In this document: one piece after another, positions 49,234-49,749 of the stretch | Layout: each line of letters begins with the position of its first letter | How positions within the stretch are numbered: position 1 is the stretch's first letter | Assembly (NCBI RefSeq): GCF_001677475.2 | Contig: NZ_CP015229.1 | Reading direction: 5' to 3' (one strand) | DNA from: Escherichia coli | GTDB taxonomy: Bacteria; Pseudomonadota; Gammaproteobacteria; Enterobacterales; Enterobacteriaceae | Length of the DNA: 64,000 nucleotides | Translations under genes and position numbers: made by a program | Notes under the pieces: model-generated | Seen by the model: the letters and a program-made list of their open reading frames with translations, nothing else | What the model was told of the DNA's origin: nothing | Databases searched by the model: none

Positions 49234-49619
49234 CCGGTCTTTGTCTTTCTCTCTATCCCGCTGGTACACAGGAGGGTTTCCCCCGACGTCAACACACCTC
49301 ATTCGAGCACGTGGTGGAGGTTCCGGTTGGTGTTGATGCTTTAATTGTATGTCACCGACGTTTCTTCGCCAGTGTAAAAGTATACTTTTTAGCCGCAATA
49401 TTTTTGTCATCTCAGACGATTTTTTATCGCAATCCAGAACGGTATGCGGCTCGATAACGCTGCAATCTTGCGCATCGACGATAACGTTTGCGCATCAATT
49501 GCCTGGTTTTTCATCGTCAAGACAATAAAAGAGAAAAAAGCAGCAAACTTCGGTTGAAAAAGCCGCTATGATCGCCGGATAATCGTTTGCTTTTTTTACC
49601 ACCCGTTTTGTATGCGCGG

Positions 49620-49635
49620 AGCTAAACGTTTGCTT
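49620..49635. promoter_or_regulatory. Candidate PurR operator upstream of ghxP
   Basis: agctaaacgtttgctt matches the PurR box consensus ACGCAAACGTTTGCGT at 12 of 16 positions, including the AAACGTTTGC core. Confidence 0.4.
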
Positions 49636-49749
49636 TTTTGCGACGCACCAATTTGTCGCAAACCTGGAGCAGGAAGATAACGTTTCGCTGGCAGGGGATT
49701 GTCCGCCACGCATCTTGACGAAAATTAAACTCTCAGGGGATGTTTTCTT

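Follow-up and report, generated by a model that had tools for sequence, protein, structure and literature searches.

The soxR–ghxP spacer of Escherichia coli: the SraL/RyjA small RNA, a PurR-controlled ghxP promoter and a conserved fold in the ghxP leader

Organization of the soxR–ghxP spacer

The DNA analyzed here, referred to as the window, is a 64-kb stretch (64,000 nucleotides) of E. coli sequence in which the list of open reading frames gave the gene order soxS–soxR–ghxP–yjcE. The genes and landmarks that define the spacer between soxR and ghxP were:

48331-48654, minus strand, soxS (open reading frame list)
48740-49204, plus strand, soxR coding sequence, the left edge of the spacer (open reading frame list and RefSeq annotation in K-12 and other strains)
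49381-49465, no strand assigned, non-conserved filler (column identity mostly below 30% over 80 loci)
49735-49752, plus strand, Shine-Dalgarno sequence AGGGGA (49735-49740) and ghxP start codon (49750-49752) (open reading frame call and RefSeq)
49750-51099, plus strand, ghxP, encoding a 449-aa permease (open reading frame list and RefSeq)

The spacer was 545 bp in length (49205-49749). A previous sequence-only reading of this DNA had taken the segment 49234-49749 as the non-coding interval; the segment does lie inside the true spacer, but it is an arbitrary part of it that cuts through a small RNA gene. The window corresponded to K-12 MG1655 at a constant offset of +4,228,729 with six substitutions in the spacer, none of which fell within the small RNA or any of the PurR boxes described below. 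A megablast search with the region from 49100 to 49850 found it, with annotated soxR and ghxP, in all but six of the 5426 complete E. coli genomes (5420).

The comparative set consisted of 80 ghxP loci from distinct Enterobacteriaceae species, with three Erwinia loci and ESL0689 as extra loci. Conservation started abruptly at about 49466. In most other genera, though not in E. coli, the place of the filler that precedes this point is taken by a glutathione S-transferase (GST) gene oriented like ghxP; the open reading frame and its Pfam matches were present at this position in E. cloacae and Erwinia. At the other end of the spacer, the Shine-Dalgarno region of ghxP, TCAGGGGAT, was nearly invariant across 79 leaders.

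The SraL/RyjA small RNA gene

The left part of the spacer contained a small RNA gene with its terminator and promoter:

49197-49337, minus strand, sraL/ryjA small RNA gene (Rfam RF01408 and K-12 ryjA b4459)
49198-49228, both strands, bidirectional intrinsic terminator hairpin common to soxR (plus strand) and sraL (minus strand) (terminator scan)
49344-49372, minus strand, putative sraL promoter, with a -10 element TACAAT (49349-49344) followed by TAA, and a weak -35 element CTGGCG (49372-49367) (from the sequence)

The Rfam model RF01408 matched the window over its full length (model positions 1-142 of 142) with a score of 153.3 bits (gathering score 39) and an E value of 5.3e-36, and the coordinates were identical to those of the K-12 ncRNA ryjA, b4459. 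The full-length match, the position convergent with soxR, the terminator and the K-12 coordinates were all the same as in SraL/RyjA and no difference was found, so the gene is SraL/RyjA itself. The sequence-only reading had mentioned ryjA as reported from this interval in K-12 and had proposed a comparison with the annotated sequence, which the identity of the coordinates now supplies. The gene is indeed present, but its ends had not been placed and it starts outside the interval then considered: the final 8 nucleotides overlap the end of soxR, and the small RNA begins 37 nucleotides to the left of 49234. In most of the 80 loci sraL adjoined soxR, with scores of 115-164 bits in five other genera, and it was absent from the three Erwinia loci.

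In the terminator, a stem of 13 bp precedes a run of T on the minus strand, and the scan detected no other terminator-like site between 49000 and 49900. The terminator helix of RF01408 also matched the plus strand weakly (23.7 bits), and the hairpin leads into a T-rich tail, GTTTGTTTT, on that strand, so it serves both convergent genes. Upstream of the sraL start, the minus strand reads TACAAT-TAAAGC, and the assignment of the hexamers would fit the sigma-S-type promoter described for SraL. In Salmonella, the expression of SraL depends on sigma-S, with in vivo binding of RpoS, and the tig mRNA is a target of SraL (PMC3753932). The PMC3415461 supplement gives sraL start sites for both E. coli and K. 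pneumoniae. SraL/RyjA is a 141-nt small RNA that is encoded on the minus strand and ends in the hairpin that terminates soxR as well; it would bind Hfq and be expressed in stationary phase from a sigma-S-type promoter. Pairing of SraL with the neighbouring ghxP leader was considered and rejected; the duplex had a predicted energy of -65.5 kcal/mol, and 53% of shuffled leaders were as good.

The ghxP promoter and the PurR boxes

The right part of the spacer contained a promoter and a series of PurR-like boxes, all on the plus strand:

49478-49493, plus strand, PurR box O1, ACGATAACGTTTGCGC (18.3 bits, rank 2 in 64 kb)
49554-49583, plus strand, ghxP sigma-70 promoter, with a -35 element TTGAAA (49554-49559), an 18-bp spacer and a -10 element GATAAT (49578-49583) (scan and conservation)
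49577-49592, plus strand, PurR box O3, GGATAATCGTTTGCTT, overlapping the -10 element and +1 (10.9 bits, weaker)
49620-49635, plus strand, PurR box O2, AGCTAAACGTTTGCTT, the box noted in the sequence-only reading (18.7 bits, rank 1 in 64 kb)
49674-49689, plus strand, box 4, AAGATAACGTTTCGCT (8.0 bits, weaker)

The ghxP promoter was the sole promoter-like site that the scan found between 49000 and 49900, with 10 of 12 positions matching. Across 78 distinct sequences the -35 and -10 elements were nearly invariant, while the 18-bp spacer between them was not conserved. This conserved consensus promoter would place the start of ghxP transcription at about 49589-49591. Neither the gene name nor the coordinates retrieved a ghxP start site from the supplements of PMC3415461, and the 3'-end mapping supplements had no entry for ghxP. 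A second promoter near O1 or O2 was also sought, and no conserved pair of hexamers was seen there, either by eye or in the scan. Relative to the putative +1 at about 49589, O1 extends from about -111 to -96, O3 from -12 to +4 and O2 from about +32 to +47.

The boxes were scored with a weight matrix constructed from the 27 ChIP-chip motifs of other loci (PMC3159470 Table 1), which was applied to both strands of the whole 64-kb window, approximately 128,000 positions. The training sites ranged from 12.2 to 24.7 bits, and the best match in the window outside the spacer scored 12.6 bits. With a symmetrised matrix O2 ranked second (15.5 bits), and O1 and O2 remained the two best sites. A PurR-like box, agctaaacgtttgctt, had been proposed at 49620-49635 from the sequence; it was located exactly there and is the top PurR match of the window. 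Both O1 and O2 have the palindrome of PurR operators, ACGCAAACGTTTGCGT, with a central CG, and scores within the range of bound sites. O3 was borderline, with 9-11 bits in E. coli, at the bottom of the ChIP-supported range, and up to 13.7 bits (symmetrised) in other genera. The score of box 4, 8.0 bits, was too low for a PurR site.

Several published observations bear on these sites. A PurR-bound region labelled ryjA/yjcD was enriched in the presence of adenine, and only then, in a ChIP-chip study (PMC3159470). This region corresponds to 49103-49733 of the window; it is 630 bp wide and spans every box, and the individual boxes are not separable. The motif given for ryjA/yjcD in that study (PMC3159470) is O1, as is the motif at 4278206 in the iModulon study. 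In contrast, O2 is given at -130 for yjcD among the RegPrecise-concordant sites (PMC4576408 supplement), and a site at -76, which is box 4, has been proposed as a novel PurR site (PMC4576408 Table 5). No published report of O3 was found in the literature searched; a mention of yjcD in a paper on G-quadruplexes concerns a different locus. Each paper gives a single box, O1 in the case of the ChIP-chip and iModulon studies and O2 in the RegPrecise-concordant list, and a layout with three boxes reconciles these assignments. Adenine represses ghxP/yjcD, a member of the PurR-1 iModulon (PMC6892915, PMC8376909), and the purine analogue HAP represses it 4-fold (PMC3809563). The purine-responsive control of ghxP that had been suggested from the sequence is borne out by the ChIP-chip, iModulon, adenine and HAP data; PurR control of ghxP is established, and the box first noted is a known predicted site.

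Conservation of the boxes

All 80 Enterobacteriaceae loci carried O2, as did the three Erwinia loci, and only ESL0689 was without it. At the O1 position, a box of at least 13 bits was present in 79 of the 80 loci and in ESL0689, and absent from the three Erwinia loci. O3 was present in 78 of the 80 loci and in Erwinia. The distance between O1 and O3 was exactly 99 bp in every locus that carried both, and an ungapped 133-bp alignment of the O1–O3 region held through 78 distinct sequences. The distance between O3 and O2 varied from 43 to 205 bp because of hairpin-like insertions between them. The operator layout, with three boxes, a rigid 99-bp spacing and one box within the leader, is richer than that given in any single paper.

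A conserved fold in the ghxP leader RNA

A structured domain with five predicted helices was identified between the promoter and the Shine-Dalgarno sequence:

49606-49718, plus strand, conserved structured domain of the ghxP 5' leader, 113 nt (RNAalifold and covariation)
49610-49619 with 49706-49715, plus strand, leader helix P1
49621-49630 with 49679-49688, plus strand, leader helix P1b
49631-49634 with 49668-49671, plus strand, leader helix P2a
49639-49644 with 49655-49660, plus strand, leader helix P2
49695-49698 with 49702-49705, plus strand, leader helix P3

A long-range helix that encloses O2 was predicted by RNAalifold from 24 diverse leaders. The helices were evaluated against slid controls, in which the 3' partners were moved by 1-3 columns. 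For P1, P1b, P2 and P3 on 79 distinct leaders, 93.4% of the cells were paired as compared to 33-55% in the slid controls, 17 pairs were changed on both sides (8-12 in the controls) and there were 171 compensatory cells (21-43 in the controls). None of 500 shuffles reached any of the pairing measures observed with these leaders. In a second alignment of 53 sequences to which P2a was added, 94.8% were paired. Parsimony on a neighbour-joining tree of the ghxP coding sequence gave at least 61 independent Watson-Crick pair switches, as opposed to 13-19 in slid controls, with 27 in P1, 26 in P2, 7 in P1b and 1 in P3. P2a, in which the right half of O2, UUGCU, is matched with a conserved AGCA, was 95% compatible with pairing and covaried in one pair of four; P3 and P2a are conserved helices with little or no covariation (one pair each). 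G.U pairs were frequent, so the helices fit the plus strand only.

Folds of single sequences recovered P1, P1b and P2 in K. pneumoniae, Kosakonia and three members of a divergent clade, recovered them in part in Mangrovibacter and did not recover them in Entomohabitans. The E. coli leader alone was no more stable than its shuffles (z = -0.2 and -1.0), so the case for the structure is a comparative one. These comparative data support well the view that the ghxP leader, 160 nt in length, would fold into a conserved domain of 113 nt.

When a covariance model was trained on the 53 sequences, it had a single match in the 64-kb window, at 49606-49718 with 105.9 bits. Held-out sequences scored 63-89 bits when they carried internal insertions and 19-39 bits when divergent. 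The result in Erwinia was marginal, with 19.7 bits in one locus and no match in two, and helix P1 was recognisable there. No additional copy of the motif was detected in the 64-kb window or in the other loci searched, and the domain occurs in one place per genome in the 5420 E. coli genomes. None of these genomes has a RefSeq annotation of the domain, no report of it was found in the literature searched, and the 4227 models of Rfam 15 gave no match with E ≤1 over the ghxP leader of E. coli and six other genera.

Box 4 as the RNA partner of O2

The P1b helix brings the left half of O2 together with box 4. At PurR positions 13-14, box 4 has CG, AA or AG and not the required GC. Position 14 of box 4 (G/A) covaried with position 3 of O2 (C/U/G), in the combinations CG (28), UA (30) and UG (13), and all seven independent switches in P1b occurred at this one pair. 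Since box 4 scores only 8 bits and deviates from GC at these positions, it is better explained as the RNA partner of the left half of O2, in the 3' strand of P1b, than as a fourth operator. Within the domain, transcribed O2 would form one strand, paired with box 4 and with the conserved AGCA. The leader fold argues against the published assignment of a PurR site at -76.

Discussion

The small RNA SraL/RyjA and the PurR-controlled ghxP promoter are both already documented, and the proposals of the sequence-only reading concerning them were right. The covarying leader domain is the sole part of the spacer that has no Rfam match, RefSeq annotation or report in the literature searched. We consider the account as a whole, a known small RNA, a PurR-controlled ghxP promoter and a conserved leader fold, very probably correct.

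The ghxP sigma-70 promoter would be repressed by PurR, with hypoxanthine or guanine as corepressors, through three conserved 16-bp operators. O3, which lies over the -10 element and +1, would block initiation. The 5' strand of P1 (49610-49619) lies upstream of O2, so O2 is transcribed, which gives independent support to the assignment of the promoter. Being within the transcribed leader, at about +32, O2 would act as a roadblock and impede elongation, as at purB and purR. This division of labour among the operators is our reading of their positions. GhxP imports the bases that activate PurR, so the arrangement constitutes a negative feedback loop.

These boxes resemble the operators of the pur regulon, especially those of purB/purR and purA/purR, in several respects: 1) the 16-bp palindrome with a central CG is shared, 2) the repressor is the same LacI-family dimer with hypoxanthine or guanine as corepressor, 3) purB and purR also have an operator inside the transcribed region (PMC3159470), as in the case of O2, and 4) they too are repressed by exogenous purine. 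An operator lies between the -35 and -10 elements in 44% of PurR promoters (PMC3159470); O2, at about +32, is not in this typical position, and O3 overlaps the -10 element and +1. In contrast to purA and purR, which have two operators, ghxP has three conserved boxes, one pair of which is separated by exactly 99 bp across genera. The layout is also reminiscent of lac O1/O2/O3 and gal OE/OI, where a main promoter operator is likewise accompanied by upstream and downstream auxiliary operators, two of them at a fixed spacing. However, looping in the lac and gal systems needs a tetrameric repressor or a helper protein, and the resemblance is a lead only. To our knowledge, PurR is a dimer with no known tetramerisation domain, so there is no ready mechanism for the fixed spacing of O1 and O3.

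The function of the leader fold can be approached from its position. The domain includes neither the Shine-Dalgarno sequence nor the A-rich region, and the A-rich ribosome-binding region would remain single-stranded. Our best guess is that the domain may tune translation or the stability of the mRNA. A stronger proposal is that it is a regulatory switch that provides a second layer of control, either a riboswitch-like sensor or the binding site of a protein such as CsrA; we regard this as possible but the less likely case. The covariation of the domain is strong, about 25 unpaired nucleotides in the junctions are conserved, and conserved GGA motifs occur both in the junction (49666-49668 and 49672-49674) and over the Shine-Dalgarno sequence (49738-49740). 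Moreover, ghxP encodes a purine permease, and Firmicutes regulate purine permease genes through guanine riboswitches. The Firmicute guanine/purine riboswitch leaders (RF00167) are likewise structured 5' leaders of a hypoxanthine/guanine permease gene. However, the ghxP leader gave no match to that model and consists of a long irregular stem with one side hairpin, neither a ligand nor an expression platform was found for it, and the purine, ZTP, PRPP and xanthine classes of Rfam did not match it. The distribution of the domain is also narrow, and no conserved alternative pairing that sequesters the Shine-Dalgarno sequence was found.

Specific mechanisms for such a switch fared no better. Most genera have CCCC in the loop of P2, a version that could pair with the Shine-Dalgarno sequence, but E. 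coli has CACC or CAGC and Erwinia a different loop, so that E. coli K-12 and Erwinia lack the CCCC version. A kissing interaction between this loop and the AGGGG of the Shine-Dalgarno sequence is unsupported; the latter is invariant, so covariation is uninformative in this case. Attenuation at the U run after O2 was also rejected as a candidate. The hairpin GCGGA...UUUGC that precedes the U6 run has a stability of only -3.6 kcal/mol with 2 G-C pairs and was not flagged by the terminator scan, and the P2 hairpin is followed by AAAC, so intrinsic attenuation is unlikely. Control of the leader by CsrA is not supported; the published CLIP-seq data have no CsrA peak on ghxP, and the reported effect, 'activated by CsrA', extends to other transporters of the PurR regulon and tracks the regulon as a whole.

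With these points in mind, we tentatively suggest that 49606-49718 might be an undescribed cis-regulatory RNA of the Enterobacteriaceae, with at least P1 extending to the Erwiniaceae, that responds to a ligand or a protein in addition to the control exerted by PurR, and in which one palindrome doubles as the DNA operator O2 and as an RNA strand. We hold this with reservation. If it is true, the sequence published as a fourth PurR site at -76 is in fact the strand with which O2 pairs in the RNA. The leader fold is also a candidate for post-transcriptional control of purine uptake in E. coli; we know of no purine-responsive RNA element in this model organism.

The arrangement originally envisaged for this promoter was simpler. 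The sequence-only reading had a single PurR box at 49620-49635, just upstream of ghxP; in the corresponding model this box is the operator and would repress by occluding the promoter. O2 is indeed a conserved PurR box, the best match in the window, retained from the 80 Enterobacteriaceae loci to Erwinia and concordant with RegPrecise, but it is one of three and lies in the transcribed leader rather than at the promoter. It has no flanking promoter-like hexamers, the conserved promoter being 40-65 bp upstream, and the start of the covarying helix P1 upstream of it places it within the transcript. The two other boxes are equally conserved, O3 sits on the -10 element, and the ChIP-chip and iModulon papers assign their motif to O1 and not to O2. 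For these reasons the single-operator model appears unlikely, and a promoter with three operators is preferred.

The conservation of O2 could be due in part to the RNA fold and not to PurR. In its extreme form, this argument holds that O2 and box 4 are conserved for the fold only and that PurR acts via O1, O3 or both. Consistent with it, the leader model pairs O2 over its whole length (in P1b and P2a), the published motifs derived from in vivo data correspond to O1, and the sole lineage to have lost O2, the reduced-genome lineage L087, has lost the fold as well and has kept O1 and O3 at 99 bp. However, O2 retains the full 16-bp PurR palindrome, including positions at which the fold needs no specific base, and its 18.7 bits lie inside the ChIP-supported range of 12-25. 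In the most divergent clade, O2 is nearer to the PurR consensus (AGGTAAACGTTTGCTT, 19.9 bits) and its pairing partner in the RNA has shifted register, and Erwinia keeps O2 and O3 without O1. The extreme form is improbable, somewhat more so than the single operator, and O2 is best regarded as an operator whose transcript also contributes to the fold.

Finally, the possibility that the spacer encodes a small protein, either the 72-aa open reading frame (49495-49713, minus strand, open reading frame list) or a 22-codon upstream open reading frame from 49612, can be practically dismissed: the frames are open in E. coli, but K-12 annotates no gene at the position of a spacer protein, the 72-aa frame crosses the promoter, operators and RNA helices in the antisense direction, and the ATG at 49612 has no Shine-Dalgarno sequence and is not conserved, many genera having GTAAGCG, GTCTGCG or GTTTGCG instead, so that a leader peptide there was rejected as well. 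The 72-aa frame had looked spurious from the sequence, and this judgement holds, since it was intact (at least 90% coverage, no stop) in just 3 of the 80 loci, all close relatives. The other two long frames, of 88 and 62 aa, were intact in 2 and 5 of the 80 loci and are likewise spurious.

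Operator spacing in the ghxP upstream region

Insertions of 45-205 bp between O3, the PurR box that overlaps the ghxP promoter, and the leader motif, a covarying RNA fold in the ghxP leader, were found in the early part of the leader in Klebsiella, Raoultella, Kluyvera, Pseudocitrobacter and Pluralibacter (loci L054, L073, L039, L077, L081), and several of them had GC-rich hairpins, e.g. CTCCCCC...GGGGGAG in K. pneumoniae. Therefore, the distance from O3 to O2, the PurR box in the leader, is free to vary, while that between O3 and the upstream box, O1, is fixed. A highly conserved TGCGCA palindrome in the context TTGCGCAT was located 4 nt upstream of O1, with a second copy at O1's right-hand edge; these copies could pair as a 6-bp hairpin or be a binding site for another factor.

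49469-49474, TGCGCA palindrome
49489-49494, second TGCGCA copy

The reduced layout of Enterobacteriaceae bacterium ESL0689 (L087, positions 1500-2000), which has a 2.4-Mb genome, retained O1 (19 bits) and O3, 99 bp apart, and lacked both O2 and the structured leader. Upstream, where soxRS would stand, was a gene for a phage-type integrase. In Erwinia (L084-L086), O1 was missing, and O3, O2 and helix P1 of the leader fold were retained.

The segment between soxR and O1

Most Enterobacteriaceae, and also Erwinia, had a glutathione S-transferase (GST) gene on the ghxP strand, between ghxP and either soxR or the small RNA gene sraL, with O1 beginning approximately 25 bp past the GST stop codon. 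The gene was missing from E. coli, E. albertii and some Citrobacter, where about 85 bp of non-conserved filler was found instead. The gap between soxR and the GST gene was just 42-76 bp in the three Erwinia loci, so there is no sraL there.

L024 1533-2203, ghxP strand, GST gene
L084 942-1604, ghxP strand, GST gene
Window 49381-49465, filler

In some E. coli strains (L082, NZ_CP104123; L083, NZ_CP069882), approximately 140-160 bp was inserted after the stop codon of soxR, ahead of the terminator shared with sraL, with a duplication of about 22 bp. The insertion, in which CCCTCACCC and GGGGCGAGGGG motifs were abundant, resembles a BoxC-type repeat. In these strains, sraL was whole (153 bits) and the soxR terminator was shifted away.

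L082 418-554, and L083, insertion
Window ~49216, insertion point

The contig labelled as a Bacillota bacterium MAG (L002) was 100% identical to E. coli in this region, and L077, labelled Chryseobacterium sp., had an Enterobacteriaceae soxR-sraL-GST-ghxP locus; both records are probably contaminated or mis-binned.

Expression and the ghxP-yjcE gap

In minimal medium, constitutive cusS mutants shared changes in six genes, ghxP among them, a result left unexplained by the authors (PMC10920338). Inspection of the soxR-ghxP spacer by eye revealed no inverted repeat resembling a CusR box.

Between ghxP and yjcE of Buttiauxella, there was a sub-threshold match to Rfam V_AS5 (46 bits vs a gathering score of 96, E 4.5e-7).

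L065 3856-3979, minus strand, V_AS5 match
Window 51100-51249, equivalent gap

The ghxP start region

Immediately next to the Shine-Dalgarno sequence was an ATG (window 49740-49742; GGGGATG), 10 nt ahead of the annotated ghxP start. In the window, in E. albertii and in contig L002, which is E. coli-like and nearly identical to the window, this ATG was out of frame; most other genera had it in frame, at 9 nt. The TCAGGGGATG block at the Shine-Dalgarno sequence was nearly invariant and would seem to be conserved beyond the needs of the Shine-Dalgarno alone.
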